From assembly GCA_964486225.1 (NCBI GenBank), contig CAZAMQ010000001.1:2660-66659 (forward strand): DNA of 64,000 nt, read 5' to 3'. This DNA is from an uncultured Thermoplasmata archaeon (GTDB lineage Archaea > Thermoplasmatota > Thermoplasmata > Halarchaeoplasmatales > Halarchaeoplasmataceae). Below are positions 1 through 16,914 of this stretch, in pieces; position 1 is the first letter of the stretch, and each line of letters begins with the position of its first letter. Position numbers and translations under genes: made by a program. The notes beneath the pieces are model-generated. The model was not told the DNA's origin. It was given only the letters and a program-made list of their open reading frames with translations, and ran no database searches.

Positions 1-26
1 GATACCTAAAGGCTTGGTTTCCGATA

Positions 27-1019
27 ATGGCATCCTTTAAAAAAAGAATAATTTATATCGATGGTTTTGCAGGACCAGGAATATATAGGGGTGGAGAGAA
101 CGGTTCCCCAATTATCGCATTAAATATTGTGAAGGATCATGTAATAGATATAAATTCTGAAGTTATCATGATATTTATAGAACAGGACGAAAGAAGATGT
201 TTAAAATTACAAAATGAAATTGATAAGATAGAGCTACCAGACAATGTAAAATACAAAATATATTGTGATACTTTTGAAAGCAAAATAACCGAGATATTAG
301 ATTATCTAGATCAACAAGAAAAAAGATTGGCACCTTCTTTTGTTTTTATAGATCCCTTTGGGTATTCACAAACACCTTTCTGCATAATTGAGAGAATTAT
401 GCAGTATCCTGGATGCGAATTCATGATAACCTTTATGTACGATTTTATAAACAGATTTATTGGTGAATCTGAGAAAGAGAAAACATTTAACGAATTATTC
501 GGAACGAACCAATGGACTGATATAGATAAAGAGGAAAACCCTGAAGGAAGGAAAAGATTTATACACGATTTATATTTAAAACAACTTAGAAGTAGAGGTC
601 GTGTTAAATATTTCAAATCTTTTGAGATGATAAATAAACACAACCATACAGAATATTTTTTGTTTTATGGAACGAAACATCTAAAAGGACTTGAAAAAAT
701 GAAAGAGGCTATGTGGGTAGTAGATTCTGTAGGGGGATACAGCTTTTCAGATAATACAGATCCTCTCCAAACTGTTCTTTTCGAGAAAGAACCAAATTAT
801 TCACAGTTGAAAAGGTTGATTATGAATAAGTTTAAAGGAAGACCGGTACGAATCGAAGAATTGGAAAAATTTGTTATAGAACAGACTCCCTTTTTAAAAA
901 AACATTTACGTAAGCCTATTTTGATTCCAATGGAAAAAGCAGATCCCCCCGAGATAACTGTATCTAATCGAAAACGAAAGGGTACATATCCTAAAGGTTG
1001 TAAAATCACATTCCTATGA
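27..1019 (+). CDS. Putative SAM-dependent methyltransferase-like protein. Motif I-like DGFAGPG lies near the N-terminus and a non-canonical DPFGY sits where an N6/N4-MTase motif IV (NPPY/DPPY) would be. Function unknown.
   Basis: Complete 330-aa ORF. IDGFAGPG at aa 12-19 matches the FxGxG SAM-binding loop. FIDPFGY about 90 aa downstream has gamma-class MTase spacing. Lysine-rich, AT-rich codon usage typical of the island. Confidence 0.4.
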   Translation: MASFKKRIIYIDGFAGPGIYRGGENGSPIIALNIVKDHVIDINSEVIMIFIEQDERRCLKLQNEIDKIELPDNVKYKIYCDTFESKITEILDYLDQQEKRLAPSFVFIDPFGYSQTPFCIIERIMQYPGCEFMITFMYDFINRFIGESEKEKTFNELFGTNQWTDIDKEENPEGRKRFIHDLYLKQLRSRGRVKYFKSFEMINKHNHTEYFLFYGTKHLKGLEKMKEAMWVVDSVGGYSFSDNTDPLQTVLFEKEPNYSQLKRLIMNKFKGRPVRIEELEKFVIEQTPFLKKHLRKPILIPMEKADPPEITVSNRKRKGTYPKGCKITFL

Positions 1020-1185
1020 TGTCACACAAAAGTAATAATAGTATCCTATCTGTAGTCATACAACTAGATAAGGGCGATTAAATGAGGGACGAGGATAAAG
1101 AAGCCCTTCTATTTTTAAGATCAGAAGGATTATCTGCACCGTAAAGGAATTTTTCACGAATTGGTGATTTTCCTATTTATATTGC

Positions 1186-3384
1186 CTAAAAATATCTACC
1201 GCGGCGTTCAGGAATATAATTATCGCTATCTCTATCAATTATTTTCCTTATTTTACCAATATATTCATTTTCTAGAGATTCTAGTTCATTACAATCTTTC
1301 ATGTTTTTACTTTCTTCAATAAATTCTTGTACTTTACCAAATATTTTTCCTTTCGTACTATGACTACCTAACAGGAAATGTTTATTTTCTGAAAATATTT
1401 TGAATAAATGAATTATAAATTCAATACTCATAAAAAGAAATTCATAATCAGAATTCTTAGTTACTCTCTCTCTTGCCTTTTTATTAAGACTTCCAGACCT
1501 AGAACCGTTCCGTAAAAGTTTTTTGCAAATAACCCAAATGATACTTTCACTTTTTATGAGTTTGCTATATTTTGATTCTTCAAGATCTTCTTTTGACTTA
1601 GAAAGTTCACTTTTAGGAATGTCCTTACGTTGTTTGGAATCAATTAAAAATATTTTATCATTAAGTTGAAGTGCACCATCAGTTTCATTAGCACCCCCTC
1701 CAGATAAATAATTGCCGAATAGATATCTCATCAATACATTAATGTGATCCTCGATCTCGTATCCTGCCCTCTTTTCATCCGCAAATCTTTCTCTAAATCC
1801 ATCTGGGTCGAAGTAATAATCCTCAAGTATCTTTATAGATCGACGAGATTCCTTTTCAACCATGAGTTGTTGATGATATTTAAACTGTCTTTGAGATGCT
1901 TTAACTATATATTCTATAACTTCTTCAGAACCTTTCGCTGTCAAAATTTTGTGATAATTCACTCGGGGTAAAATAACATTGTATATTTTATCGAATTTGT
2001 TGAACTGAGTTCTTGTAGCAAGGATGACTTTATAGAAACGCCGGTGTTCATCTGAAGGATCATCTGAATATGACTTAAGTATCAATGTTATTTTGTCTCC
2101 CAAACTTTTATCGTAATCTACTGATGTTATCCTATATTCCCTTCCTTCCAATTGTATATCACTCCTTTCTGAATTTTTCAAAATGTTATATATCTCCTCT
2201 GTTAGTTTATCTTTGTTTATATCTATAGATTCACCACCATTAACTTTCAGAATATCCTTTTCATAAAGAATTTCCAACCCTGATTCTTTAGACATTTCTT
2301 CTAGTGGTTGTAAATATTTAATTCTATAGTTAGAATTAGTGGTGAGAAGTTTATTTATGTAAAAGGAAGATGGTTTATAGTAAGGTTCATATACTTCAAT
2401 ATCATTTTTTTTCAGAATCGTTTCAATTTCATCTCTATATTTTTCGTATTCGTCTGGTAGTTCTAAAGCTATCTTTATGAATTCTTGATTTCCTTCAATT
2501 CTTTTGAATGTTTGAAAGTTCAATTTAAATTCTACATCTTCTTCTTTTTTAACATAAGTAAATGTACATTCATTTATTGACAATATATCCTGTTTATCGT
2601 GAAGGAGAAGATCATAATCTACGAAATCTTGTATATCGATAGGTGTTTCCTTTCCGGACGATACATTAAGAGAAATATCACAATTGTACGATGACAGTTT
2701 AATTTTCCTTAAAAAAATATCTTGGCTTTTCAAATTTGAAATGAAACTTGGTTTGATCTTCAATTCCTCATATTCTTCGGGTTCTTCGTCCTCAAGTTTT
2801 ATTGCGTCCATTTTTTCTGTATTACGTATAAATCTGCTTCTTTGGGTTTTGTTCCCAGATAAAAGTAATTGGTTATTGTCTTTATCTATTTCAATAAGTA
2901 AGGGCGGGTAAAATTCTATCTCTTCTGGTTTAAACATATCTGTATATTCTCTAGTTTTTATATGCCCCCCATATATTATTTTTGGATTTGTACCGTCTTT
3001 CAAAACTATATTGTTCCCCCTTCCTATATCCTCCAAAAAAGATTCAATATCAGTTGTTTCCTCAAACTTCTTAACATCATTTTTTCTAAAACCTTTTTTG
3101 AACCTAATTTTCAGTAAATCTTCGATGTATTGTCTAAAATTTTCCGCAGAATATGTTGGTTTATTTTCATTGAAAGATTCGGCGACTAGGTCAGAAATTC
3201 CATCCCAAAATTCCTCATTTTTCGTATCTACTTTCTCATATTTTCTTTGCAACTTTTGAATTGATGTATCATTTCTTTTGAAAACATTTTTTGCTGAAAT
3301 AAAGATTTTAGCATTTTTAGTGCAAAAGAGGAGAGGTAATATTCTATCTTTAAGATATTCTTTTTCTAACTGGTCTGGTTTCAT
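1186..3384 (-). CDS. Large orphan lysine/glutamate-rich protein (~733 aa from the MKPDQ start; the ORF extends to 3441). No recognisable catalytic motif (no P-loop). There is a possible weak D...EFK PD-(D/E)xK-like segment. It is the third gene of a coupled operon.
   Basis: Long uninterrupted ORF on the minus strand. The internal ATG at 3384 lies 1 nt after the stop of the upstream 93-aa gene (stop 3386-3388, ATG 3382-3384), implying translational coupling. I recognise no conserved family motif. Confidence 0.5.
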   Translation of the reverse strand: MKPDQLEKEYLKDRILPLLFCTKNAKIFISAKNVFKRNDTSIQKLQRKYEKVDTKNEEFWDGISDLVAESFNENKPTYSAENFRQYIEDLLKIRFKKGFRKNDVKKFEETTDIESFLEDIGRGNNIVLKDGTNPKIIYGGHIKTREYTDMFKPEEIEFYPPLLIEIDKDNNQLLLSGNKTQRSRFIRNTEKMDAIKLEDEEPEEYEELKIKPSFISNLKSQDIFLRKIKLSSYNCDISLNVSSGKETPIDIQDFVDYDLLLHDKQDILSINECTFTYVKKEEDVEFKLNFQTFKRIEGNQEFIKIALELPDEYEKYRDEIETILKKNDIEVYEPYYKPSSFYINKLLTTNSNYRIKYLQPLEEMSKESGLEILYEKDILKVNGGESIDINKDKLTEEIYNILKNSERSDIQLEGREYRITSVDYDKSLGDKITLILKSYSDDPSDEHRRFYKVILATRTQFNKFDKIYNVILPRVNYHKILTAKGSEEVIEYIVKASQRQFKYHQQLMVEKESRRSIKILEDYYFDPDGFRERFADEKRAGYEIEDHINVLMRYLFGNYLSGGGANETDGALQLNDKIFLIDSKQRKDIPKSELSKSKEDLEESKYSKLIKSESIIWVICKKLLRNGSRSGSLNKKARERVTKNSDYEFLFMSIEFIIHLFKIFSENKHFLLGSHSTKGKIFGKVQEFIEESKNMKDCNELESLENEYIGKIRKIIDRDSDNYIPERRGRYF

Positions 3385-3385
3385 G

Positions 3386-3667
3386 TTAACGCACCTCAAT
3401 ATATTCGTTAATTCTCTTCTTGGTTTCTGTGTACATCTCATTATAATTTTGTTGATCGTTAATTAGTATATGTCTATGACAGTATCCTCTTAAGTGTATC
3501 CTGTGGCGTTTCGGTATATCGCCTTTAACCATTTTCATAAAATTTAGAAATTCATTATTTCTGTTGTTGTTATACTCTATATGTTGTTTATAGATTTCAA
3601 ATAGTTGTTTTTCGTTGTCCTTGATTATTTGCTTTAACTGTTCATCATCTTCCCATATTTTTTCCAT
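3386..3667 (-). CDS. Small hypothetical protein (93 aa), the middle gene of the three-gene minus-strand operon.
   Basis: ORF flanked by 1-nt gaps to both neighbours: upstream stop at 3669-3671 versus ATG 3665-3667, downstream as above. Charged and lysine-rich, with no motif recognised. Confidence 0.4.
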   Translation of the reverse strand: MEKIWEDDEQLKQIIKDNEKQLFEIYKQHIEYNNNRNNEFLNFMKMVKGDIPKRHRIHLRGYCHRHILINDQQNYNEMYTETKKRINEYIEVR

Positions 3668-3668
3668 T

Positions 3669-4049
3669 TTAATCCCTCTTTATTTGGTTTTCCAAATTTT
3701 CTGTGTGTGTATCTAACTCTTCTGTTAAATTTATAATTTTTATAGCTATTTTTTGAGCTGTTTTATTTCTCATTCTTCTTGTAGTGTGTTGAACCGATCC
3801 TTCCTGAACTTTGCCAAAACGATCGATGACCGGATCTCGTTTATTTAAATCAGATTTAATTTCATCCCATCTATCTTGAAATTCGCGAGGAAAATCATCA
3901 CTATTAAGAACAAACAGGTCATTCAAATAAGCATCTCTGACTCTTTCTCGAACATTGCTTTCATTTGTGGCCAACGTATCACAAGCAAGATGCAATCTAC
4001 TTATCGTATACCTATATTTTTGAACCATTTCTTCTATTGTCATGTCCAT
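3669..4049 (-). CDS. Small hypothetical protein (126 aa), the first gene of the three-gene minus-strand operon.
   Basis: ORF with ATG at 4049 preceded by a long AT-rich non-coding leader (4050-4700). No motif recognised. Confidence 0.4.
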   Translation of the reverse strand: MDMTIEEMVQKYRYTISRLHLACDTLATNESNVRERVRDAYLNDLFVLNSDDFPREFQDRWDEIKSDLNKRDPVIDRFGKVQEGSVQHTTRRMRNKTAQKIAIKIINLTEELDTHTENLENQIKRD

Positions 4050-4807
4050 CTAATTTCATACGGTAATATAATTGATATATATTTAAAGTTGCCTAACTTT
4101 GGGACATTTGTAGCTAAGTTAATTTAAATAAATATGAAAAATGTAGTATTATGGTCAATCTACCCATTATTAGTATCGGAATTTACGTAATTGCGATTAT
4201 AGCTAAAATCTTCACATATTTACAAAATAAACGTTGGAAAGAAAAAATTCCGGCATATCAAATGTTTTTCGAAGTGAGTGTACCCCAAGGCTAAAGCCAT
4301 TGGGACATATTGAGATAACTTGTTCTCTCGAAAACAGGAACTATGTTCCAGTGGATTGAGGGAACTTGTTCCCTAAAGAGTTGTAATCAGGATTCCGACG
4401 TACTCTATTGTTGTCAGGCAAAGTCCTTTAGATATTTCAGGAAAATCGATTTATTTTCCTGATATCGAAGGAATTCTATGATAATTTCTATAGAGAAGTT
4501 TGAGGAGTTCTTGAAGATCGGTATAATCTTTTTGATATGGCGAGTGAATTACTCGGAATATCTATGTAGTGGTGAGATTGAAATACATATCCAATAGAAG
4601 TCCTGTATAGGAATCCAGCTATGATAGATGAGTTGGAGAAGGTTGTCCACTTCCTTCTAACGAGTACATCTACGATGTACGAGTGTGAAGAATTTTGATT
4701 CCATACAACCCAAACATAAAAGGTTGGGGAATTAGGGTTAAGGCAGGTTTATTAAATCATATTGTTTGGTATAATCATCTACATATTGTTCTAAATAACG
4801 GTTATTT

Positions 4808-5044
4808 CTATTTTCGCTTAAATTTACCTTCTATCCAGAAATCACCCGTATACGCATTTCCCCCCAATCTTATTTCCTCTAAATCCTCTTTGATCTCTTG
4901 TATTTTATCTTCTAATTTTTTATGTGGGGTAAAGAAAGGCTCGTTCTGTTCTGTGAAATCGACAATTATATCCTCCAAGGGTGTGAAAAAAAAAGTTTCA
5001 CTGTTCTTTTTGATCTTCTTTACCAGAGACATTTCATGTTGCAT
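4808..5044 (-). CDS. Possible small acidic protein (78 aa). Weak call.
   Basis: ORF with protein-like E/K-rich composition. The overlapping plus-strand ORF 4695-5054 has non-protein-like composition. Isolated in an otherwise non-coding AT-rich region. Confidence 0.2.
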   Translation of the reverse strand: MQHEMSLVKKIKKNSETFFFTPLEDIIVDFTEQNEPFFTPHKKLEDKIQEIKEDLEEIRLGGNAYTGDFWIEGKFKRK

Positions 5045-5130
5045 AGTATTGTAAACTCGGAAGGGTATTTATAAGTTACGGTTGTTACATAAAGAGAAGT
5101 TTTATATAGTTATACCCACATGGGAATAGT

Positions 5131-5487
5131 ATGTTAGAGTATGTATGTCTAAATTGTTGGCATAGTTTTAAACCAAGAGACGAAACTGTAAGCAGGAGGA
5201 AATGTTCAAACTGCAAAAGCAGTAGAGTAGTGGAATTAAAGACTTTAGCGAAAGCTCTAACAGGAGCAAAAGAATGGCTTGAAAAACAGAAAAAACCATT
5301 ACCTTTTTCTAGTGTATTGGTTGTTATCAGAGATTTTCCAACTATCCATAATATACTTAAAAATTCACCTTTCCCTAGGGGTATAGAAACTTTGAATCAA
5401 ATAATAGAATGGGCTAAAGATTGGGATAATGATCGTCTTTCAGCAAAGGAATATTTAATTTTAAAGTTAAGAGAAGTAAATCCATAA
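5131..5487 (+). CDS. Small Zn-ribbon protein (118 aa), the first gene of the RelA/SpoT-domain cassette.
   Basis: N-terminal CxxC-x19-CxxC (CLNCWHSF...CSNCKS) zinc-ribbon signature. Same strand as the next two genes, 128 bp upstream of the following gene. Confidence 0.5.
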   Translation: MLEYVCLNCWHSFKPRDETVSRRKCSNCKSSRVVELKTLAKALTGAKEWLEKQKKPLPFSSVLVVIRDFPTIHNILKNSPFPRGIETLNQIIEWAKDWDNDRLSAKEYLILKLREVNP

Positions 5488-5615
5488 CACATTATATATT
5501 GTTTGAGTATTTAAAATGGTTTTACAATGAAATTATAATTTGTTCATAACCTCCAATTTGAACATGTAAACTAGAATCACAGTAACACATATTAGGAAGT
5601 AATTGTATAAAGAGA

Positions 5616-7019
5616 GTGATAGTTATGAGTAAAGAGGGACCCCTGGATGTAAAAATAGAAAAAGCGATTAGAAAGTCATCTCCGTCAAAAAAATCTACCT
5701 TCGATTTGATTAATAATTTCCTTTCTAATCGAGATTTGAACATATTTTTTAATCATTTGTCAACAAATCAACATTATAAGCAATTGTTGTTCCTTCATCG
5801 TTACGATTTGTTTGATCTTGAGGATGAAATGTTACCTTTGTATTTTCACCTTTGCAGCTTATCGATGGGTGAAAGTGAATTGGCGACACAAATAGAAGAC
5901 CCAACTCTAGAATATGTGATATCGAAAGAGAGTGAAGCTATAAGCAACGGTATGGTTTTTTTACAAAATTTATTAGCTTTAGATGAAGGTCAATGGGATA
6001 TATTCTTGGAGGACATAATGGATGTGGTGGCTTATTTATCAATCTATTTTATCAGATATAATCAGAATATTAAAAATCTAGTTAATGCTGAAATATTTGA
6101 CTACGAGACTATGAAAGCCGTTTTAAAAAGTTACGAGAATACTATTAATTTCAGCTCATTTATTGAGGAAACGGTATCCGCATTAGAAACTGACCAAGAT
6201 GTAATAGATCCGATTATAAAAGAAAAAATATTTAAACTACTTACACAGGTCTTCTCGGGGTTCAGAAAAAACCTGAATCTTCTAATAGAAGATACTGATA
6301 AATTTTTACCAAATTTCAAATTAACTTATCATTTATCATCTAGTATATTGATAAAAAAACTTCTATCGCTATCGGGCCTATCCTTTAATGAATATACAAA
6401 ATTTCTTGATGAACTATATCGAAATCGTTTGATCGAAAATAAAAGTACGATATTTTGGTGTGAAAATTGTAGTCTTGAGAATCCATCTTATTCGGAACAT
6501 CATGGCAGAATCGCACCTTCAAAAATATCTCGAAATAACTGTTTGTATTGTAATCAACCACAATCTTATGCATCTATATTTTCGATAGATACAACTTTAA
6601 AGGAGGCTATACTTTCTAAGGATGGCCTTTTGTCTGTTTATCTCGGTTGGTTATTAAAAAAAGAGGGTATCAAGTTTGAAGTTGGTGGATATACCGCTAA
6701 ATTTGAAAATGATTTCGTTATCGATAATTCTATTCTGGTAGAGTGTAAGATGTTTAAATCCAACAAAGATCGAGTTGCGATACGTTCTAATTTGGATAGT
6801 TGTTTTTCTCAAATTAAAAAGCATATCAAACAGTTAGAAAAAGAGGGAACAAAAATACAAAGAGCATATCTTGTTTGGAATCGAAGAGAAACAGAAAAAG
6901 AAATCCAGAATAAACTGGAATCCAAATATATGGAATTGTTTAGAAAATATAGTTTAAAAATCATATGCCCAGATAAGATAGAAGAACTTGTTGAGGTGAT
7001 AAAATCCTATGATCGATAG
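5616..7019 (+). CDS. Zn-ribbon + PD-(D/E)xK nuclease-like protein (467 aa).
   Basis: Central CxxC-x25-CxxC (CENCS...CLYCN). The C-terminal segment GGYTAKFENDFVIDNSILVECKMFK gives a D-x(6)-E-C-K pattern (nt ~6711-6758), typical of restriction-endonuclease-fold nucleases. 47 bp upstream of the next gene. Confidence 0.55.
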   Translation: MIVMSKEGPLDVKIEKAIRKSSPSKKSTFDLINNFLSNRDLNIFFNHLSTNQHYKQLLFLHRYDLFDLEDEMLPLYFHLCSLSMGESELATQIEDPTLEYVISKESEAISNGMVFLQNLLALDEGQWDIFLEDIMDVVAYLSIYFIRYNQNIKNLVNAEIFDYETMKAVLKSYENTINFSSFIEETVSALETDQDVIDPIIKEKIFKLLTQVFSGFRKNLNLLIEDTDKFLPNFKLTYHLSSSILIKKLLSLSGLSFNEYTKFLDELYRNRLIENKSTIFWCENCSLENPSYSEHHGRIAPSKISRNNCLYCNQPQSYASIFSIDTTLKEAILSKDGLLSVYLGWLLKKEGIKFEVGGYTAKFENDFVIDNSILVECKMFKSNKDRVAIRSNLDSCFSQIKKHIKQLEKEGTKIQRAYLVWNRRETEKEIQNKLESKYMELFRKYSLKIICPDKIEELVEVIKSYDR

Positions 7020-7066
7020 GACTGTAATATATTATATCATTAACCCCCCTCAAAAGAGACATTGGG

Positions 7067-9973
7067 ATGTTGAAAATGAATGAAGAAGATTGCTTGAATG
7101 AATATGAAGATTTAAAGGATCTTTATACTGACTTCTCCATGGTAATTCGTACAATAATAGAGAACATTTTATACACAAATGACATAAATTATCAAGTTGT
7201 AACTAATAGGACGAAAAACGATGAATCTTTAAAACGCAAAGTTAAAGAAATCACCGACATTCACTCTGTAAGAGATATAGACGATCTAGCTGGTTGTAGA
7301 ATAATTTTCTATACGAACAAGGATACACAACGAATTGTTGGATATTTATGTGAAGAATTTGACGTTGTTAAAGAAAATTTAAAATATTCTGAAAAGAGTT
7401 ATAATGCTCTACATCTAGTTGTTAGATTAAAAGAAGATCGATTAAAGCTTTGTGAATACGAGATGTTTGATGGGCTTAAATGTGAAATTCAATTAACAAC
7501 AGTATTATTCCACGCATGGTCTGAGCTTGCACATGATTTAATCTATAAGCCTAAAGAAGATCTTTCTAAATTTGATGAACATGCATTTGATTCAATTGAA
7601 GCTCGATTTCGCAAGACAATGGGGGAACTAAAAAGGGTTCAAACGGATTTTGATTATATCATAAAGCAGTGGAAAGAAATTAGAAAAGGAAAAAAAATTT
7701 TTTCTGAAGAATTTCTATATGATCTGGAATCAGCAGGTTCTATTAATGATATTCAACAAAAGTTAAAACTCATTTTAGAACACGTTGAAAAATTTGGTGA
7801 TAAAACACCAAAAGAATTACAAATAATCGAAATAATTAACAACGCTCTAAAAAAATCAAAAACACTCAAAAAAGAACCTATCAAAACTCTTTTTGGTGAA
7901 CACCCAGGATTTGATTATTCCGATGTAGCTGATGTTAGTTTGGACATCTTCGATCGTTTGAAATATATTTATCCAAAAGATGTTTTTGATGAAATAAAAT
8001 GTTTATCTGTTGATTCAGAAGAAAAAGTTAAAAATAAAGCATTAGATGTTTCTTCAAAAATTGTTAAATATTCATTTGTACCAGAAAATGAAGCAATTTA
8101 CTATCATATCCAATCATTTGTCACCGAAGAAATTGAAAATTGGGACGATGAAACATTGCTTAGATATTTCAATCTAACAGTAAAGGTATCCGATGAGTTG
8201 CTTTCCCCTTCGTTTCACACTGTTTTGCCTAGTGGGTATGATAAAATTTCTTTATACCAAGGCCCACTACCTCCAAACGACACATTAATAAGAATAAGAG
8301 AAAGAACAATATGTATTCTTAAACGGCTATATACTATATCTGAAACTCTCTCGAACAAACACAAAGTTTTAAAGACGCTCAAAAAAGCAACCCTAACACC
8401 CAATGAAGAAGATTATTCGCCAGAATTAAAAAGGGTTATTTTGGATAATACAAATGATGTAATATCTTTTTACATATACCTTGTCGAAGATTCTGATAAT
8501 GAAATAATTCAGATTATTGAGCAACAATTGAACGGTTTTATAAAAAGATTTAAAGATGATTTGATATATTCGGATAAATTAAATGAAATGATTAGTAAAA
8601 ACGAGGATTATAAGGTACACAAAGTACTTGTGGGTTGGGATATTAACTACTTCAATGACTATCAATATGAAAAGGCAGAAATCGAGAGAAAACAAAAAAT
8701 TAATGAATATGTAACACAGATTAACGAAGAGTGTATTAATGATTGGGAAAATAAATTTTTATCTATTCTAAAAAATTACAATCAAGTTAACTCTCGAAGC
8801 GAATATCGGTATCTTAGATATTTCTTAGAAAATTTGGGTGAACAAAAACCTCGGATTGGGTTTGAACTAGCCTTAAAAATAGATTTTGAACTAGGACCTT
8901 TTTTGGACAGTCTAGTAACTGGTATTTGGAAAAGCCCCGAAAAGGATTTGGCTAAGGAATTATTGTCACGTTGGATAAAGGAAGGAAAGCATTTGTCAAC
9001 GTGTCCAAATGTATTCTCTCATACTCATGAAACCGACCTCACATTGTTATCTATGTGTTATGAAAAGGCGAAAGAGCAAAAAGATATTGATGTTATTATT
9101 GGTATCGTAATATGCATTTCAATAAACTATGACCAAAATCCAGACCATAAAACCATATTTATTAATTGCATCAAAGAACTAAATAAATATGGAAATTATA
9201 TATGGACAAATTGTTTTATCCACAATGATAATTCTATATTAAGAGACATTGACAAAATAGACCTAGATGTACTTTTAGAAAATTTCAAATATGCTCCGAG
9301 AATTGATCATGATTTGGAATTAATATTATCGGAATTTGCACACCAATATCCTGGAGAGATAATCGACTTTTTTTATGAAAGAATTAAAGTGCAAAGAGAA
9401 AAAGATGGAAATGATAGATATCATGCAATACCTTTTTCATTACATATTTTAAATGAATCCTTAAGTAAAAATCCTGTGAAAGTTATCGACGAAATTTTGA
9501 AATGGTTTGATATCGAAGATAGATTATTATGTATTGAATGGGCTAATTTAATTGAATTGATTTTCCCGGAGTTTCATCCTGAACTAGAAGATAAATTAAT
9601 CAAATTACTACGATCTAAAGATGATAAAATAGAGATTATTGTTTTGTGTATCTTACGCGCATATGATGGTCAAAAATTTTTACACGAAGTTTGTAAAGAG
9701 TTTATCAAGCAATGCCCTGAGAAAAAGGAGTATCAACAAGAAATGTTCTTAATACTTTCTGGAACAGTTGGTGGTTTTGGTGAATACGCAATTTGTGAAT
9801 CTTATAAAAAGAAAAGAAGAGAGATTCAGGAATGGAAAAAAGATGAAAATATCGCAATTCAAAAATTTGCTATACTGTATGATCGCTATTTATCTAGTAT
9901 GATAAACTACGAAAAAAAGAGAGTAGATGAAAGTGTTGAATTTATGAAAAGAGAATTTGAAACTCATGGCTGA
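7067..9973 (+). CDS. RelA/SpoT-domain (nucleotide pyrophosphokinase / alarmone-synthetase fold) protein. The synthetase-like domain is at aa ~28-165, followed by a ~800-aa alpha-helical C-terminal extension of unknown function.
   Basis: All three hallmark synthetase motifs are seen directly: RxKxxxSxxxK as R48-TKNDESLKRK-58, DxxGxR as DDLAGCRIIF (aa 72-81), and the EIQ(I/L)T...W(A/S)ExxH..YK block as CEIQLTTVLFHAWSELAHDLIYK (aa 139-161). No HD hydrolase, TGS or ACT regions are recognisable. Confidence 0.7.
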   Translation: MLKMNEEDCLNEYEDLKDLYTDFSMVIRTIIENILYTNDINYQVVTNRTKNDESLKRKVKEITDIHSVRDIDDLAGCRIIFYTNKDTQRIVGYLCEEFDVVKENLKYSEKSYNALHLVVRLKEDRLKLCEYEMFDGLKCEIQLTTVLFHAWSELAHDLIYKPKEDLSKFDEHAFDSIEARFRKTMGELKRVQTDFDYIIKQWKEIRKGKKIFSEEFLYDLESAGSINDIQQKLKLILEHVEKFGDKTPKELQIIEIINNALKKSKTLKKEPIKTLFGEHPGFDYSDVADVSLDIFDRLKYIYPKDVFDEIKCLSVDSEEKVKNKALDVSSKIVKYSFVPENEAIYYHIQSFVTEEIENWDDETLLRYFNLTVKVSDELLSPSFHTVLPSGYDKISLYQGPLPPNDTLIRIRERTICILKRLYTISETLSNKHKVLKTLKKATLTPNEEDYSPELKRVILDNTNDVISFYIYLVEDSDNEIIQIIEQQLNGFIKRFKDDLIYSDKLNEMISKNEDYKVHKVLVGWDINYFNDYQYEKAEIERKQKINEYVTQINEECINDWENKFLSILKNYNQVNSRSEYRYLRYFLENLGEQKPRIGFELALKIDFELGPFLDSLVTGIWKSPEKDLAKELLSRWIKEGKHLSTCPNVFSHTHETDLTLLSMCYEKAKEQKDIDVIIGIVICISINYDQNPDHKTIFINCIKELNKYGNYIWTNCFIHNDNSILRDIDKIDLDVLLENFKYAPRIDHDLELILSEFAHQYPGEIIDFFYERIKVQREKDGNDRYHAIPFSLHILNESLSKNPVKVIDEILKWFDIEDRLLCIEWANLIELIFPEFHPELEDKLIKLLRSKDDKIEIIVLCILRAYDGQKFLHEVCKEFIKQCPEKKEYQQEMFLILSGTVGGFGEYAICESYKKKRREIQEWKKDENIAIQKFAILYDRYLSSMINYEKKRVDESVEFMKREFETHG

Positions 9974-10047
9974 ATGATTGGAAATACGAGTGTTTAGATT
10001 AAGATATCGGATTATTAGAAGGTTATAACTAAATATACATCCTCTCC

Positions 10048-10743
10048 TCACTGTATGTTTTCCTTAACCCTCTCCCTCCGCTCCTCATTCGGAGGATGGA
10101 ACTGAACCCCTAGCATTTTCAAATACGCTCTTGCAACCCCCTTCTCGATCTTAAACCCCAACGCCTCCTTGTTCTCATCAGAAACCCGGGATAACGTCGT
10201 TTCGTAATCGATCCCATCGATGATCTCCAGTGCTTCATAGGCAACATCCCAGGGGTTTTTGATGTTGCAGGCCTCCTGCATCATCTTTGCGGCCCAGAGA
10301 TCGCATTTGTTTTCGATGTCCCAATTTCCCTTGTATGTGAACTTGGGGCTGATCAATGCTATGGCGGTGAAGATGATGAAGGCAGAGATGGGGTATATTC
10401 CGCTCATGTTCAATATGTACACGGGTACGTAATAAGAGATCACTGCTATCGTGAGGAAGAAGATGAGGAGGTTGAATAGAGCGTTCTTTTTCAGAGGATA
10501 TCTCGATAAGTGTGCTTCTTCGTGTAGTAGTGCGAAGGTGATGTGTTCTTTTTTTAGTTCCTTCAGATCGTTGAAATACGGGTTGTAAAGGATCGCACTG
10601 GTGCCGGCTTTGAATGACTTTGTTTTTAACGGTGCCTGGACCAGTTTTCTGTTTTTGTCGATCAGGTATCGTTTGTTTTTATCCGATGATGCTTCGGTGT
10701 TTTGAAGCTGTGTAAATATCTCTCTGATCCTATCGTTTTTCAT
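10048..10743 (-). CDS. Membrane-associated HExxH zinc-metallopeptidase-like protein (231 aa).
   Basis: LLHEEAHL motif followed by 2-3 hydrophobic helices. The gene is conspicuously GC-richer (~50 %) than the flanking AT-rich DNA. Confidence 0.45.
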   Translation of the reverse strand: MKNDRIREIFTQLQNTEASSDKNKRYLIDKNRKLVQAPLKTKSFKAGTSAILYNPYFNDLKELKKEHITFALLHEEAHLSRYPLKKNALFNLLIFFLTIAVISYYVPVYILNMSGIYPISAFIIFTAIALISPKFTYKGNWDIENKCDLWAAKMMQEACNIKNPWDVAYEALEIIDGIDYETTLSRVSDENKEALGFKIEKGVARAYLKMLGVQFHPPNEERRERVKENIQ

Positions 10744-10883
10744 GATATTGGGTGCCCCTATAGTTGGTTTCTTCTTGAAGATTATCTGATTATCCCTTTA
10801 AATTATTGTTGGTTATTGAAATAGAATTGAGGATTATTTTGTCGAAGGAAGTTTTTTAATACACTTAATCTAATCAGTAAACA

Positions 10884-11138
10884 ATGTCGCTTAAAGAAAG
10901 GATTAACAAAATACTTTTGGAAACAAAATATCCAATATATTGGATATCAATGTTTGTTATAATTTTAATGCTATCGATTTATATTGTGCACAATTTCAGA
11001 GATAATTGTTTTCTATTTTCTTCTATAATATTATTGTCTGCAGTTTACATTTATACATTTTGGTGTGAATCGAATGAAAATAGTTACTCGAACTATGCTT
11101 TAAGCCTAGGCACATTAATTATTATTCTCATTGTATAA
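10884..11138 (+). CDS. Small hydrophobic two-TM protein (84 aa). Hypothetical.
   Basis: ORF with two hydrophobic stretches. It ends 9 bp before the left inverted repeat of the IS element. Confidence 0.3.
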   Translation: MSLKERINKILLETKYPIYWISMFVIILMLSIYIVHNFRDNCFLFSSIILLSAVYIYTFWCESNENSYSNYALSLGTLIIILIV

Positions 11139-11146
11139 CCTAGAGA

Positions 11147-12220
11147 GATATGTCACCCCTCTATTGAGAAGGTAGAAGTATCTTCTCCAATTTAAGTGCT
11201 TTGACGAGCTTGTCAAACCATTTGAGATCTACCTCACCAGAATATTTATCCTCCGGACAAGTATCTATTGCCGAATGATGCTTTCCGTTATTGTACCAAT
11301 GGTTGTAAATTCGGATGAATTTATCGATCTTAGTTCTGTTCCTTGAATTACCAATGTGATGTCTAAGGAAACGCTTCAGACCTTTTTGATATGCACTTAG
11401 CTTTCCGAGTGTTTGTGGATGGTGTATACTAGACCATATATGCTTTTGATTGACGTATTCAGAACAGTATTTTCTCATCTCATTATTCTTTCTGTTGAAT
11501 TGTGTCCCATTATCAGTGAGAAGATTATCATACTTTGTTTTGATTAACTTTTTCATCCCCTGGATAACAGTCTTATCTTTTGCATCTCTTAAAGATACAG
11601 CCCATCCTTTTCTAGAATGGTCGTCTTCCATTGTTAGAAGGGAGACGCCATTAAATGAAGTCAGATCTGCCTGTATCAAACGGTTTGGATGTCCCCATTC
11701 AAACCGTTTCCAATCGTTTTGAACACGTCTCTCACGTTCGATCTCACCTTCTCTTACGAGGATATTGTAAGTAAGAGAGGGATATAGACGTTTAGTCATA
11801 CCAGCTCTTTGTAAACTTTGATTGACAATGTCTGATACTGGTTTTGGTCCAAAACCGGTAGCTTTCCTTACAGCTATGACTTTATCTTCGATTTCTTTGG
11901 GAGTTTTATTAGGTATTCTTTTTGGCCGTTTTGATTTAAAACGCAATCCTGCAATCCCTTCCTCCCGAAATCTCTTTAGAATCCTGTAAAATTGTCGAAG
12001 ACTTCGACCGATCATCTCAGATGCTTTTTTACGAGTGATTCCAAAAGGCTTAGGGACTAGTGTTTTCGCAACAGCTCCGTAACGTTCTTTCACATAGCTT
12101 GGCTCATCCTTGAGAACATCGATGTGTTCCCTATCCAAATATATACTTCCTCTTTCTATTATCATTTCGTGTCACCTCTTTGTTGGTGAGTTTATCATTC
12201 CGACAAAGGGGTGACACATC
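11147..12220 (-). mobile_element. IS481-family insertion sequence (~1.07 kb) with 14-bp imperfect terminal inverted repeats (GATATGTCACCCCT / AGGGGTGACACATC).
   Basis: IRs at 11147-11160 and 12207-12220 match 13 of 14 positions and bracket a single DDE transposase ORF. The termini begin with TGT, as in IS481/IS3-like elements. No target-site duplication is discernible. Confidence 0.75.
11161..12165 (-). CDS. IS481-family DDE transposase (rve integrase core).
   Basis: N-terminal HTH region. IQADLT resembles the WQxD first catalytic aspartate motif. TDNGTQF is the classic rve TDNG(x)EF motif. HPQTLGKLSAYQKGLK is the HPQTxGkxER motif. Length 334 aa. Confidence 0.85.
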   Translation of the reverse strand: MIIERGSIYLDREHIDVLKDEPSYVKERYGAVAKTLVPKPFGITRKKASEMIGRSLRQFYRILKRFREEGIAGLRFKSKRPKRIPNKTPKEIEDKVIAVRKATGFGPKPVSDIVNQSLQRAGMTKRLYPSLTYNILVREGEIERERRVQNDWKRFEWGHPNRLIQADLTSFNGVSLLTMEDDHSRKGWAVSLRDAKDKTVIQGMKKLIKTKYDNLLTDNGTQFNRKNNEMRKYCSEYVNQKHIWSSIHHPQTLGKLSAYQKGLKRFLRHHIGNSRNRTKIDKFIRIYNHWYNNGKHHSAIDTCPEDKYSGEVDLKWFDKLVKALKLEKILLPSQ

Positions 12221-12305
12221 TTAATGGTTTACACAAATTATTATTCTCATCATTATCTCAAGATTTATTTGGGATAGGGATTCTGCAATTAACATTAGTG
12301 TTGCT

Positions 12306-12701
12306 GTGGGGACAGTATCTGGGCCCGTGATGGCATACTTTGCATTTATGTTTTATGAAGAGACAAAAAGGGTAGAAAAAAAGGAGCGACAAAAAACCGA
12401 ATGGTATAGAAGATTACATATAATATTGAACAACAGAGAATTGAACAAATTGGTAGGAAATAAGGATATTGACTTAGCAGTGAATCAGGGAACTTATGAG
12501 AGATATGAAAAGATCATTGAGAACATGGAAAGATTATGGATAGATAAGCCAGAAACTATAGACGAAGAAATAGCGGAAAAAATTTTTAAGATTATATCCG
12601 AACTTCAAGATACAACGGCACCAGCTAGCATATCTTTTATCTGTGAACACATGCCCCAAAAAATTAAACAACTAAGAATGTTAGTAAAAAAACATATTTG
12701 A
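12306..12701 (+). CDS. Hypothetical protein (131 aa) with a hydrophobic N-terminus, directly upstream of the HEPN gene.
   Basis: ORF only. Same strand as the HEPN gene, 61 bp upstream of it. Confidence 0.35.
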   Translation: MGTVSGPVMAYFAFMFYEETKRVEKKERQKTEWYRRLHIILNNRELNKLVGNKDIDLAVNQGTYERYEKIIENMERLWIDKPETIDEEIAEKIFKIISELQDTTAPASISFICEHMPQKIKQLRMLVKKHI

Positions 12702-12762
12702 TTGATAAGATTGAATTTAATTTCAGAAAAATACTTAAACAAATATTCCACTCGAAGTAAAC

Positions 12763-14112
12763 ATGGATTACACCGAGTATAAAGGTAAATGGTGGCTCCC
12801 AGGTAAAGAGTATAATAAGATATTTGGAACATTGAAATTCTACCCAAATGATCGTTTGGAACTTGAAGTTAATGGTATTTTTGAATCACTACCTTTTGGT
12901 CGGCTGATTGAATTCACCCAGTATGATTTCATTTATGGGGAAGATTACAATGGTAAAAAAATTACATTATTTAAAAATAGAGAAACGTATAGAAGTAAAG
13001 ATATTGAATCCCGATATTTAGTTGTATATGCATTCATAGGACATCACTTTGTTAATGAAAAAGAAATATCTTTCGATGAGATAGAAATCAATTTTCATAA
13101 TCTTAAAGAATGGTTTGGTTTGTCAGGAATTGGTTATGAATATGATGATGTAAGTTTTGCCTATCGATATACCGAGCAAGACATTATTAAAAATAATATT
13201 GATGGCGAATATGAGTTGAATTTTATTTTCGGCTGTCCTTGTGAAATGAAAGGTACAGGTCCTACAGAGATATATTTAAAGGATGAATGTTCTCTAGAAA
13301 TTAAGAAACATTTCGAAAAATCTCTTGATCGATATTTTGAAATAATAGAAATGCTCAAAGTATTTTTTTCTTTATCGATGCAATTACCTATTTATATGAC
13401 TAACATGAATGGAGTGGTTAGCGACGAAGGACCCTGTTGTAATATTTTATTTGGAGATATCCGAGATGAAAAAGATTTACAAAAAGTTCATAAATTCCAA
13501 ATGCCATTAATTTATGATAGAATCTCAGAAGAATTTGAAGGTGTTTTAAAAAACCTTCACAGATCCTACCATAAATTTGAAAACATGTTTAATTTGTACC
13601 ATGGCATAATATACAATCAAAATATGTTTCCAAGACAAGAATTTTTATTTTTGGTTAATGCATTAGAATCATATCATCGTTTGTGGCTAAAAGACAAATA
13701 CATCTCTGATGAAGATTTTAAAAATAAAGTTTACAATAAGTTAGTTGACGCGATACCGGATGATATCCCTGTAGATTTGAAAAATAGTTTGAAGTCAAGG
13801 TTACAATATCACAATGAATACTCCCTCAAGAAAAGATTGGATGAAGTTTTTGAAAGGTTTATAGAACCTATTGATTTTATAATAGAGAATCGAGATGATT
13901 TTACAAACAGAGTCAAAAATATGCGAAATTATTATTCACATTATTTTGAACTTGAAGAAGAAATAACCTTTGAAGAATTAAATAATATTAAAGAAAAATT
14001 GAAAACCATCGTAGAAATTTGTATCCTTGGGGAAATAGATGTAGATCTGGCAAACGATTTGGAAATAGTTGATAAATTATACAAAAATAAAAGAAAATTC
14101 ATAAGTTTTTGA
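12763..14112 (+). CDS. HEPN-domain protein of the Abi_2 (AbiD/AbiF) / ApeA-like abortive-infection type (449 aa).
   Basis: C-terminal MRNYYSHYF (nt 13921-13947) matches the Rx4-6H HEPN signature in its RNxxxH form, which is characteristic of Abi_2. Large alpha-helical protein inside an AT-rich accessory island. Confidence 0.55.
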   Translation: MDYTEYKGKWWLPGKEYNKIFGTLKFYPNDRLELEVNGIFESLPFGRLIEFTQYDFIYGEDYNGKKITLFKNRETYRSKDIESRYLVVYAFIGHHFVNEKEISFDEIEINFHNLKEWFGLSGIGYEYDDVSFAYRYTEQDIIKNNIDGEYELNFIFGCPCEMKGTGPTEIYLKDECSLEIKKHFEKSLDRYFEIIEMLKVFFSLSMQLPIYMTNMNGVVSDEGPCCNILFGDIRDEKDLQKVHKFQMPLIYDRISEEFEGVLKNLHRSYHKFENMFNLYHGIIYNQNMFPRQEFLFLVNALESYHRLWLKDKYISDEDFKNKVYNKLVDAIPDDIPVDLKNSLKSRLQYHNEYSLKKRLDEVFERFIEPIDFIIENRDDFTNRVKNMRNYYSHYFELEEEITFEELNNIKEKLKTIVEICILGEIDVDLANDLEIVDKLYKNKRKFISF

Positions 14113-14343
14113 TTAGTCCTTGAACAACTTTGAAATCACAAGTTACCTTTGTTGGAAAATATTCCAATATATTATCACCAAATTTGATCCCTATGGCTTG
14201 CAGTAACAAAGTCGTAGTAATGATGCCTTATAAACAAGCTTGAAGACCCGTGATCTCATTGAATTTTAGTACTTTTCAGTTTTGTAATCTATATACGATT
14301 GCATCTATTAAAACAAGGATTAAAAGTTCATGAAAATGAGATA

Positions 14344-14823
14344 TTATTTAATCAAACTTAACAATGATTTATATCTTTTAGTATACATAGATAATAAAGT
14401 CATACTCCAGATTTCAACAAATATAGTGGAAAAGAATAATCCGAATAAATGATGCCACTCGGAATCAATTAACATCAACTTAGATGGACTCTTTACAACA
14501 TTATATACTAATATAAACATGTACAGACCTATTAATCCATTAAAAAATTTCATGGGTAATGGGTAACCCTTTAAAAAATCAAAATCTCCTTCACTTTGAT
14601 CAGCATCTTTATCATTATTTGTTTTTCTTCTAGCCCTTTCAAGGTCTGAATATGATAGAGAAATACCAAGTGGAACAGAGATTATTACTACTTGATGGAA
14701 AAAGGAAATGTTAAATCCCAAAAATTGGGTTGGAAGATATAAACTCAGCAATATCACCGTATACCAAAATAACCTTTTCTTTATCAGCAGAGATTCTAAC
14801 ATTTCATCATCAAATATCTTCAC
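14344..14823 (-). CDS. Hypothetical integral membrane protein (159 aa, ~4 TM helices).
   Basis: ORF with four hydrophobic segments. No motif recognised. Confidence 0.4.
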   Translation of the reverse strand: MKIFDDEMLESLLIKKRLFWYTVILLSLYLPTQFLGFNISFFHQVVIISVPLGISLSYSDLERARRKTNNDKDADQSEGDFDFLKGYPLPMKFFNGLIGLYMFILVYNVVKSPSKLMLIDSEWHHLFGLFFSTIFVEIWSMTLLSMYTKRYKSLLSLIK

Positions 14824-15004
14824 GGTATTAAAAATTTAGGACTTATTGACGAATTTATTATTTTTTTATTGGTAATAATTTACAATGCCCAAATTATAAT
14901 AAGATGACAAATTGCAATAAAGAAAATATGAGATTTGAAGAAAGGAAGGAAAATGGTGAAGTAACACATGTGGAAGGAAAAGACACTTTCTAAACTCCTC
15001 TTAA

Positions 15005-15130
15005 AACCATCTTAAAAAAAGTTAAAAACACGTTAAAAAACATCTTAAACCAACCTTGAAGTACACTTAAAACACGTTCAAAAACATCTTAAAATATCCT
15101 TTAAATCACTCTAAATTTCGCTTAAATCAA
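15005..15130. repeat. Degenerate tandem repeats built on a CTTAAA core. They include two copies of AAAACACGTT(A/C)AAAAACATCTTAAA (15024-15048 and 15068-15092, period 44 bp).
   Basis: Direct reading: at least 7 CTTAAA/CTTAAAA motifs and a 25-bp imperfect direct repeat within 125 bp of non-coding AT-rich DNA. Confidence 0.6.
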
Positions 15131-15563
15131 ACCACTTATGAGATCGGTGAATATCTTTAAAATTGTGAATACGCTGGGAAAGCAACGCTTTAAAACTCCA
15201 CCCAACCTCCACATCTTCGCAAAAGTCAGCAGATGCCTGCCGAATTTCACACGCAAATTTCGGCAGTTCCACACCTCATCCAGTGATCCATAATCGCCGA
15301 ATATCTCCAAAAAGAGCAAGATCAGACGCTCTTACATTCTTTTTGTGCAATCTTTTCAGAAAACTAAAAGTTTTCTAAACGATATCGGGAACGAGTTCCC
15401 GAAATAAAGTCGGCAGTTTTCACAAGAGTTATCGCAAAAGTCGGCAGGTGAATATTTCGGGAATCAAATTCCCGATATCGAAGGAATTTTTCTCAAAATT
15501 CCTGTAGATCACGTGCAAAAGGTAGCAGTTAGCAGCCACCTTTCATAACTCGTTTGAGAGGTA

Positions 15564-15758
15564 AGGGGATGCCAATCCCCGCAAGTCTTTGACTTCAGAT
15601 CCGGAAAGGGGAAAAAGATCGAAACACTCCGATTACTGGCGATCGAGGATAGGAGATCATCGTGCGATCTACGAAATCGAACATAAAAACGAACGGATCA
15701 TCGTATTATTTATTGGTCATAGAAAAGACGTTTACGATGATTTTTCACGATTGGTCTG
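15564..15758 (+). pseudogene. Truncated 3-prime remnant of a RelE/ParE (StbE)-family toxin gene.
   Basis: This frame translates to ...RSRIGDHRAIYEIEHKNERIIVLFIGHRKDVYDDFSRLV*, the characteristic C-terminal core of RelE/ParE toxins (YRIIYxIdxxnxxIxILrIGHRKDVY). The frame opens immediately after a stop at 15561-15563 and contains no ATG, so the ~35 N-terminal residues are missing. No antitoxin ORF lies upstream. Confidence 0.6.
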
Positions 15759-15978
15759 AGTCATCGTTCCCACCTGCACACCAGCCAGTGAGCTCTCGAC
15801 CATTTGTTTCAACTTAAAAACGACTTCGTGTGGGTGTATTCGGCGAAGTACAGCCGGCGGCAGAGATAAACATCGTTATATGAGAAGTCTAGCGTTCCAT
15901 CTTTGCAGCTTGATATCTGTGCTGTCATGTGACAAAATACAACAATACTTAAATACTATTGTTGATAATTGACATAAG

Positions 15979-16914
15979 ATGAAAGTAAGACTCAATGCAC
16001 TTCAGATCGAGATAATGCAGTGCTTGATGAAGAGGGAATACGGAACCCTTAAACAGATATCGCTGGAGCTCGATAAGAGCCAATCCAGGATATCCTCTGT
16101 TGTTAGTGACCTGGAAAATAAGGGATTGGTCGATCTTGAAAAAAAGGGTCTTTCCAAAAAAATTTCCGTTGCAAACAGTAAACACGCATCTATTCTAAAA
16201 AAACTCTTTGCTATGCATCCAGTGGATTTCGAAAACTGCCTGTCAGGATCCGCCCTCGAAGTTCTTCAGCCGATCACTGAAGATGAACTAAGCCGCTCCG
16301 AAGTTTCCAAAAGGTGTGGTTATTCCGAAAGAACGGTGTCCAGGGTTTTTGATCGGATGAGAGAGAGAGGTATGATCGTTGAGGAAAGTGGTCTTTACAG
16401 CATCAATCCCAGATACGCTGCATTATCGGAGTTCATATCGGAATTTCAGTCGTATCTAAACGTTAAAAGATCTCGTTCTTTTTCTCCAACATCCACCATG
16501 ATATGGGAGAGAGGAAAAGAATTTATGGTAGAGACAAGAGAGACGAATGAAGAAGATTATTTTCTTACGGGATATGATAGATTAGCCGACTTCGGTGTAC
16601 CCCTGATAACCACAGGATCACGGTATTACTTTTATACCGAGATGAAAGACGAACTTGTGTTGGAAGATGTGTGCTTACATACACTAATACCCGATATTAG
16701 CAGTACCAGAAACCTCCTTTACGTATTACTGGCGATAGGAAAGAACAGAGTGAATTGGAGTTATCTGAAAATAGAATCTGTAAAATACGGGCTTGAGGAT
16801 ACTGCTGCGGCCCTAAAAGAGTACATGGATAGCCGTGGAAAGAAAAAAGCAAAGTATTTTCCTCCATGGGAAGAATATAAAACCAAGGCCAGGGAGTACG
16901 AGATAGATGTATAG
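15979..16914 (+). CDS. Transcriptional regulator with tandem winged-helix (MarR/Lrp-like) domains and an uncharacterised C-terminal domain (311 aa).
   Basis: Two HTH-like segments (LKQISLELDKSQSRISSVVSDLENKGLV and RSEVSKRCGYSERTVSRVFDRMRERGMIV). Overlaps the downstream gene by 8 nt. Confidence 0.55.
   Translation: MKVRLNALQIEIMQCLMKREYGTLKQISLELDKSQSRISSVVSDLENKGLVDLEKKGLSKKISVANSKHASILKKLFAMHPVDFENCLSGSALEVLQPITEDELSRSEVSKRCGYSERTVSRVFDRMRERGMIVEESGLYSINPRYAALSEFISEFQSYLNVKRSRSFSPTSTMIWERGKEFMVETRETNEEDYFLTGYDRLADFGVPLITTGSRYYFYTEMKDELVLEDVCLHTLIPDISSTRNLLYVLLAIGKNRVNWSYLKIESVKYGLEDTAAALKEYMDSRGKKKAKYFPPWEEYKTKAREYEIDV

Follow-up and report, generated by a model that had tools for sequence, protein, structure and literature searches.

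Genes and features of the locus

We analyzed a 64,000-nucleotide stretch of DNA from an uncultured Thermoplasmata archaeon (assembly GCA_964486225.1, contig CAZAMQ010000001.1, positions 2,660 to 66,659 of the forward strand; the whole stretch is called the window below), and in particular a gene in its left part that encodes a putative nuclease of the PD-(D/E)xK class. A preliminary description, made from the letters of the sequence, had placed there an open reading frame (ORF) at 5616-7019 (+) and had read its product as a zinc-ribbon-linked nuclease, possibly an effector fed by the nucleotides of the enzyme encoded downstream, with a small zinc-ribbon protein encoded just upstream as a potential regulator or antitoxin. 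The ORF is present in the window, but its GTG start at 5616 is probably three codons too early: we prefer ATG 5625 (MSKEG...), because the database gene model begins at this ATG, as do all homologues, which align from there. The resulting protein of 464 amino acids (aa) is identical to a database protein of the same length (P0001). All residue numbers are counted from ATG 5625, and the features are collected in Table 1.

Table 1. Features of the nuclease gene and of its surroundings in the window; counts refer to the alignment of 65 family members described in the text.
Feature	Residues	Position (strand)	Observation
TcmP three-Cys-motif partner protein		27-1019 (+)	TIGR04474 (6e-57); PADLOC PDC-M30A (3e-66)
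ORF of 118 aa		5131-5487 (+)	N-terminal zinc ribbon CxxC-x15-CxxC; weak match to Zn_ribbon_8 (E 0.027)
Nuclease gene, 464 aa	1-464	5625..7019 (+)	Stop codon included
N-terminal helical domain	1-228	5625..6308 (+)	Mainly helices (DSSP of the AlphaFold2 model); most divergent part
FLHRxDLF motif	56-63		Within the N-terminal helical domain
Probable winged helix-turn-helix	229-278	6309..6458 (+)	Three helices, then the first strand of the wing
Zinc ribbon C279-x2-C282-x23-C306-x2-C309	279-309	6459..6551 (+)	Translation and conservation
C279	279		64/65
C282	282		47 Cys and 8 His of 65
C306	306		65/65
C309	309		65/65
PD-(D/E)xK (restriction-endonuclease-fold) nuclease domain	314-464	6564..7016 (+)	
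D333	333	6621..6623 (+)	55 Asp and 6 Glu of 65; N-terminus of core helix 1 (334-346)
Catalytic signature E361-N-D363 ... E373-C-K375	361-375	6705..6749 (+)	Near-invariant in 65 relatives
E361	361		65/65
D363	363		65/65
E373	373		65/65
K375	375		64/65
N419	419	6879..6881 (+)	65/65; directly after core strand 4 (413-418)
RelA/SpoT protein, 968 aa		7067-9973 (+)	N-terminal RelA_SpoT nucleotidyltransferase domain (Pfam E 5e-13)
Transposase		11161-12165 (-)	In the low-GC island, 4 kb from the nuclease gene
ApeA-type HEPN protein		12763-14112 (+)	ApeA_NTD1 (2e-40); Apea-like HEPN (2.5e-24); PADLOC PDC-S58 (1e-67)

Predicted fold and conserved residues

The full-length protein was modelled with AlphaFold2 using an alignment of 35 sequences (predicted local distance difference test score, pLDDT, 77.4; predicted template modelling score, pTM, 0.70), and secondary structure was assigned by DSSP. 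In this model the nuclease core consists of helix 334-346, strands 351-353, 363-366 and 370-375, helix 383-406 and strand 413-418, that is, in the order alpha-beta-beta-beta-alpha-beta; the pLDDT means of ten-residue blocks are mostly 83-94, with one block at 67. The preliminary description had singled out D, E and K at the spacing of the restriction-endonuclease catalytic core in KFENDFVIDNSILVECKMFK (encoded at 6699-6758). These residues are located not in loops or helices but in strands of the predicted core: strand 2 begins with D363, and E373 and K375 lie within strand 3.

Conservation was counted in an alignment of 65 family members, down to 16% identity to the window protein, which served as the reference. 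The residues of the catalytic signature are invariant or nearly so (Table 1). Because they are conserved to this level of divergence and are placed on strands 2 and 3, we accept the PD-(D/E)xK assignment and consider it, as well as that of the zinc ribbon, sound within the model; the window protein is presumably an active nuclease. D333 is a candidate additional metal ligand and may take part in catalysis. The mean identity to the window protein increases along the chain, from 0.18 in the N-terminal 228 residues to 0.25 at 229-278, 0.26 in the ribbon and 0.33 in the nuclease domain. The selected core of the protein is formed by the active site and the metal ligands; the N-terminal domain is its fastest-evolving part.

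The bare pattern D-x6-12-[DE]xK was found in 87% of shuffles of the nuclease protein and in 26 of the 39 long reading-frame segments of the window, and taken alone it is meaningless. The pattern ExD-x7-11-ExK occurred in 7% of the shuffles and the double-CxxC pattern rarely, in 0.05%. We judge the motifs of the nuclease to be real because they are conserved among relatives, not because the patterns are rare.

Structural comparison with the PDB by Foldseek ranked Cdn1 and Can2 first, followed by Mus81/XPF/Hef, XisH, BspD6I, BsoBI and Cap4; NucC also stands further down. The best structural matches are PD-(D/E)xK nucleases, as the preliminary description would lead one to expect, though all at E >0.04. 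The profile of the 65 sequences weakly matched the Mrr-like protein AF1548 (1y88; E 0.0033) over a region spanning helix 1, ExD and ExK. A search of PDB sequences with the single protein yielded one chance-level match, Pvc16 (E 0.73), and the same search with a narrower family profile (A1) yielded none. Among the viral structures of BFVD nothing was found at E <0.007, and the matches annotated as nuclease-type belong to the same fold class.

Upstream of the nuclease domain, the model contains helices 229-237, 239-250 and 254-266 followed by strand 270-279, and this region gave sub-threshold profile matches to HTH_45 (E 0.01) and Sso10a (E 0.001), while one of the 65 members matched the winged helix-turn-helix (wHTH) family DUF2582 in Pfam at 8.8e-5. 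A winged helix at residues 229-278 is therefore probable as far as the prediction goes. The hairpin formed by strands 270-279 and 314-321 bears both CxxC knuckles at its tip, so that the zinc ribbon appears to sit there as an insertion into the wing. The two CxxC motifs had been noticed before, but their spacing is x23 and not x25 (WCENC-x23-CLYC, 6459-6551). By profile, the ribbon weakly resembles the zinc ribbon of ribosomal protein L33 (E 0.02-0.06; 65-sequence profile against PDB sequences). Assignment to the iron-sulfur nucleases of the Cas4/AddB type, in which the nuclease domain is clamped by four cysteines, one ahead of it and three behind it in a CxxCx5C-type triad, was considered and rejected: here the four conserved cysteines all precede the nuclease domain within a stretch of 31 residues, where they form two CxxC knuckles between strands, and C282 is replaced by histidine in eight of the 65 members.

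The long helical N-terminal region named in the preliminary description is borne out by the model, in which almost everything ahead of the ribbon (residues 7-266) is predicted to be helical; residues 1-266 as a whole consist of helices and a single short strand and do not show the alternating alpha/beta pattern of a Rossmann-like domain. No sensor of the CARF or SAVED type was detected in the nuclease by Pfam, PADLOC or predicted secondary structure, nor by Pfam in the 65 members. The sole CARF match, found in PADLOC at residues 113-185 (E 0.009), was rejected, the segment being predicted as helical; a helical sensor of a new kind is nevertheless conceivable. When the N-terminal domain was modelled alone (residues 1-252), pLDDT was 59.6 and pTM 0.41, with residues 52-107 below 50, whereas the blocks for residues 21-60 reach 84-94 in the model of the whole protein. 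Because confidence drops in the isolated domain, we suggest that a part of it packs on the C-terminal half of the protein.

Family and distribution

A word-indexed search identified 45 relatives with 36-100% identity, each about 460 aa long and lacking both a functional name (a few are labelled 'hypothetical protein') and Pfam domains. When 1.84 billion cluster representatives were searched exhaustively with an HMMER profile, 226 passed E<=1e-3 and 82 of them passed E<=1e-30. Full-length matches are nearly all 410-480 aa long; among the 150 matches listed, the shorter ones cover the profile partially and look like fragments, and none was seen to combine the N-terminal domain with another C-terminal module. 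Judging from these sequences, the family appears to be unnamed and architecturally uniform, with proteins of about 410-470 aa. Its named sources are Candidatus Methanoperedens, an uncultured archaeon, Candidatus Levybacteria, Spirochaetes and Chitinophagales, a patchy spread, and tblastn found no match to the nuclease in plasmid and phage collections.

The window nuclease has no threshold-passing match in Pfam, NCBIfam, PADLOC or PHROGs. For the 65 diverse members Pfam reported only sub-threshold matches, to NERD (two of the 65, best E 0.0032), DpnII-MboI (two of the 65, best E 0.006) and winged-helix families. A description of the architecture, a helical N-terminal domain followed by a winged helix, a zinc ribbon and a PD-(D/E)xK domain, was not found in the literature.

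One homologue is shortened. In two contigs (L034, 2631-3598, and L035, 404-1371) tblastn aligned residues 11-460 at 60% identity to a shortened stretch whose intact ORF has 158 aa, and this copy, next to a histidinol dehydrogenase gene, is likely a pseudogene or a deletion derivative.

Gene neighborhoods

Family loci with flanking DNA were gathered from about 21 distinct lineages (single loci are denoted by L and a number). No partner conserved across lineages was found, either by tblastn of all window neighbors against 44 loci or by all-against-all BLAST of the neighbors. In the latter comparison the only similarities between neighbors of different lineages concerned methyltransferase, GmrSD and HerA-type genes, which were located at different positions. 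Known or candidate defence genes, counted by eye, occur within three genes of the nuclease in 13 of the approximately 21 lineages.

The neighbors themselves are diverse. In L001 a GmrSD_N gene lies upstream on the same strand, and a 306-aa ORF and then NERD-STAND and SIR2 genes lie downstream. In L007 and L009 the nuclease gene is followed after 22-37 nt, on the same strand, by the gene of an Avs1b-like STAND NTPase of 2030 aa (L007 9399-15497, L009 8539-14622; 96% identical between the two loci), which matches PADLOC Avs1b at 2e-41 and has its own PD-(D/E)xK effector (Endonuclease effector, 1.5e-17). A type I HsdM gene follows on the same strand in L008 and L023/24, in the latter together with HsdS. 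L012/21 has a type IIG enzyme upstream on the same strand and a HerA-like ATPase, GmrSD and PDC-M11A downstream; L022 has PglX/type IIG and Schlafen-AlbA2 genes upstream on the same strand and Hypoth_Ymh downstream; L018 has an HNH gene upstream on the same strand and a convergent reverse transcriptase gene downstream; and in L037 a BsuBI/PstI enzyme is encoded downstream on the same strand. At L010/11, by contrast with these same-strand arrangements, IS200-type Y1 transposase genes lie on both sides, both on the other strand; L004/17 has a convergent hypothetical gene downstream and a TnpB-like gene 1.3 kb away; L015, L034 and L040 abut housekeeping genes (HypF, histidinol dehydrogenase and acyl-CoA dehydrogenase, respectively); and in L029 and L032 the flanking genes on both sides are on the opposite strand. 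None of the loci from L010/11 onward in this list has a defence context.

Genes related to restriction-modification (R-M) recur in these surroundings. Type IIG/PglX-like N6-adenine methyltransferase-restriction genes are located one to three genes from the nuclease in four lineages with 25-63% identity to the window protein (L007 4405-7554(-), L021 34-1791, L022 1691-3547 and 5061-6854, L041 2542-5550), and HsdM is directly downstream in two others (L008 9474-9848, L023 3663-6110). The proximity of both could be due to co-location in islands or to a real link with R-M or BREX-like loci. In L022 (1691-6854) the PglX/type IIG gene appears to be split into an N-terminal ORF of 618 aa and a C-terminal ORF of 597 aa, with a 505-aa Schlafen-AlbA2/HATPase_c_4/Fic-like_C gene between the two halves; this may be an insertion into the methyltransferase or a multi-subunit form of it.

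In the window the nuclease gene lies in a low-GC island: positions 1-16000 have a GC content of 0.30-0.34, with one 2-kb interval at 0.38, and the remainder, which bears archaeal-type genes (LonB, ATPase_2/DUF234, Lhr, AFOR), has about 0.49. The left boundary of the island is outside the window, and a search of the whole window with Rfam found no tRNA or other RNA family, hence no tRNA anchor for the island. Given an island of 30% GC inside an archaeal-type genome of 49% GC, the nuclease gene was probably acquired horizontally. At the left end, the TcmP gene is accompanied by opposite-strand ORFs at 1186-4049 (-), namely a convergent ORF of 751 aa and small ones of 126 and 93 aa, which have no database match; together they may form a multi-gene candidate system that is either incomplete or new.

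Comparison with described nucleases

The kind of protein is familiar, a stand-alone nuclease of the restriction fold in defence islands, and it is the domain arrangement that is undescribed. Can2, Card1 and Cdn1 (DUF1887), as well as VC1899, bind cyclic oligoadenylates through a Rossmann-like CARF domain at the N-terminus and are encoded together with type III CRISPR-Cas systems, whereas the window protein has an N-terminal domain predicted to be all-helical, a wHTH and a zinc ribbon, and shares 12-14% sequence identity with them; Pfam found no CARF or DUF1887 match among the 65 members, and no cas genes are present among the annotated neighbors in the window or in the about 20 other lineages. 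NucC and Cap4, nucleases of the cyclic oligonucleotide-based anti-phage signalling systems (CBASS), differ from the window protein, for which no SAVED domain was detected and whose surroundings include no conserved cyclase or nucleotide synthase of another kind.

Shedu (SduA) is a defence nuclease made of one protein, in which the PD-(D/E)xK core at the C-terminus is conserved and its activity is gated by N-terminal domains of diverse kinds (10.1101/2023.08.10.552793; 10.1101/2023.08.10.552762). The present family likewise has a conserved nuclease domain, a divergent N-terminal domain and stand-alone genes, which we use as a working analogy only; unlike Shedu, it has a wHTH and a zinc ribbon, and neither the window protein nor its 64 relatives match DUF4263 or Shedu profiles in Pfam or PADLOC. 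With Mrr-like and type IV enzymes, including AF1548, the family shares a winged helix preceding the PD-(D/E)xK domain, a solitary gene with no fixed methyltransferase, and a frequent location beside R-M, BREX-like and GmrSD genes. Unlike them, it has an extra helical domain of 228 aa and a zinc ribbon, and none of the 65 members matches Mrr_cat or Mrr_N in Pfam at threshold.

Autonomous nuclease or partner of adjacent genes

The RelA/SpoT gene of the window starts 47 nt downstream of the nuclease gene on the same strand, and its product has a bona fide nucleotidyltransferase domain (Table 1), a C-terminal region of about 800 aa in which no domain was significantly matched, and matches to the PADLOC candidate PDC-S33 (2e-12), for which we found no paper naming it in the literature, and to phrog_9640 (7e-29). 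Since the structures most similar to the nuclease (Cdn1 and Can2, with NucC and Cap4 lower in the ranking) belong to enzymes activated by nucleotides, this arrangement could be read as that of an effector: the RelA/SpoT-type enzyme would make a nucleotide on infection that binds and activates the nuclease. However, the pairing is confined to the window and the contigs L019 and L020, which are duplicates of the same locus (100% identity), and no RelA/SpoT gene was found near the family in the approximately 20 other lineages. The converse holds for the neighbor, which has at least 107 homologs of about 970 aa across bacteria, the Candidate Phyla Radiation (CPR) and archaea, with varying surroundings. 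In two CPR loci the homolog is preceded, at a distance of 12 nt, by a GmrSD_N-HNH gene, and the loci of Helarchaeota and Halobacillus are flanked by hypothetical genes; tblastn with the window protein detected no nuclease relative at these four loci, and the family profiles found nothing at three of them. In addition, the resemblance to Cdn1 and Can2 is probably limited to the nuclease domain, the N-terminal domain being predicted as all-helical rather than as a Rossmann-like CARF or SAVED domain, and the characterized defence RelA/SpoT homologs CapRel (PMC9712102) and FaRel2 (10.1101/2024.07.05.602228) are self-contained toxins acting on tRNA and not signal makers. The 118-aa ORF was correctly located by the preliminary description, and as a small same-strand gene 138 nt upstream of the nuclease, with a real CxxC...CxxC pattern and some similarity to Zn_ribbon_8, it would suit a protein that neutralizes or regulates a toxic nuclease. 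Yet it is present only in L019 and L020, that is, at the same locus, and beside no other family member or RelA/SpoT homolog; the upstream genes of the other lineages are unrelated to it or missing, its product is a singleton cluster in a collection of 15 billion proteins with no PADLOC or PHROGs match, and the bicistronic arrangement is not conserved. Both interpretations fail because conserved co-occurrence, their defining test, is absent: we consider it very unlikely that the nuclease of this archaeon was recruited as the effector of the adjacent enzyme, and a toxin-antitoxin pair appears extremely improbable. The adjacency of the RelA/SpoT gene probably reflects co-location in a defence island and not a signalling partnership.

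A more general partnership would make the nuclease a shared subunit of modular two-gene systems, working with whichever large protein is encoded downstream, and in several loci a large same-strand gene does follow within 22-190 nt (RelA/SpoT in the window, STAND in L007 and L009, HerA/DUF87 in L012, the type I methylase HsdM in L008 and L023). The downstream proteins are, however, mutually unrelated in the all-against-all BLAST and belong to complete systems, the Avs1b-like STAND protein having an N-terminal PD-(D/E)xK effector of its own and HsdM coming with HsdS; moreover, L004, L010, L015, L018, L029, L032 and L034 have no same-strand downstream gene or a housekeeping one, so that we regard such a modular role as unlikely. 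Neither need the family serve defence. A nuclease of a mobile element (in homing, transposition or as an excision helper) or of DNA repair and recombination would be consistent with the Y1 transposase genes flanking it in L010/L011, the TnpB-like gene near L004/L017 and the transposase 4 kb away in the window, and with the XisH/FdxN excision factors and XPF/Mus81/Hef among the fold matches. But transposases accompany the gene in only two or three of the about 21 lineages, neither inverted repeats nor a conserved element context came to light, though no systematic search for them was made, and the plasmid and phage collections contain no match; the patchy distribution, the low-GC island and the dense defence neighborhood speak against housekeeping repair. 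A function outside defence is therefore quite unlikely in our estimate.

Proposed function

We think that the window protein probably works on its own as a metal-dependent defence endonuclease encoded by a single gene, with a helical N-terminal domain that limits cutting. A defence role is suggested by the known or candidate defence genes near 13 of the about 21 loci and by the many defence-type genes with which the low-GC island of the window is packed. Autonomy is suggested because no neighbor is conserved, because some loci have flanking genes on the opposite strand, and because the big neighbors are self-contained systems (the Avs1b-like STAND protein of L007 and L009, type IIG and type I R-M, GmrSD, PDC-M11A). 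According to this proposal, the winged helix and the zinc ribbon would hold nucleic acid, probably DNA; D333, E361, D363, E373 and K375 would form the metal-dependent active site; and the fast-evolving helical N-terminal domain, apparently packed on the C-terminal half, would confine cutting to foreign targets. This domain might either recognize a feature of foreign DNA, as in type IV restriction, or hold the enzyme inactive unless a viral trigger is present, as in Shedu.

Several observations weigh against this proposal. Association with defence islands is guilt by association, based on about 21 loci inspected by eye with no background model, and L004, L010, L015, L034 and L040 have no defence genes nearby. 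DNA methyltransferases lie within three genes in about eight of the 21 lineages and several loci have none; the family may or may not have a looser link to R-M systems. No curated defence or nuclease family was significantly matched in Pfam, NCBIfam or PADLOC (by Pfam for all 65 members), and no Foldseek match in the PDB is significant, the best having E 0.044. The closest structural match, Cdn1, cleaves single-stranded RNA (PMC12825302), and for this reason the substrate may be RNA. The N-terminal domain, to which no fold is assigned, is proposed as a specificity or regulatory domain by conjecture, and for every family member both the nuclease and the defence function are inferred.

More tentatively, the family may represent a previously undescribed single-gene immune nuclease of archaea, CPR and ordinary bacteria, in which a diverging N-terminal domain senses foreign DNA or a viral trigger by a mechanism unlike those of Shedu, Mrr and Can2-type enzymes. 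As the architecture is not covered by Pfam, NCBIfam or PADLOC, it is overlooked by present defence finders. The locus also illustrates that a gene lying beside one of the RelA/SpoT type within a defence island should not be taken for half of a nucleotide-signalling pair unless there is evidence of conservation, and the RelA/SpoT family of about 970 aa is a separate uncharacterized candidate in its own right. If the proposed function is confirmed, a small cross-domain family found in archaea, CPR, Bacteroidota and Spirochaetes would join the single-gene defence nucleases, and with it a new N-terminal sensor or specificity domain.

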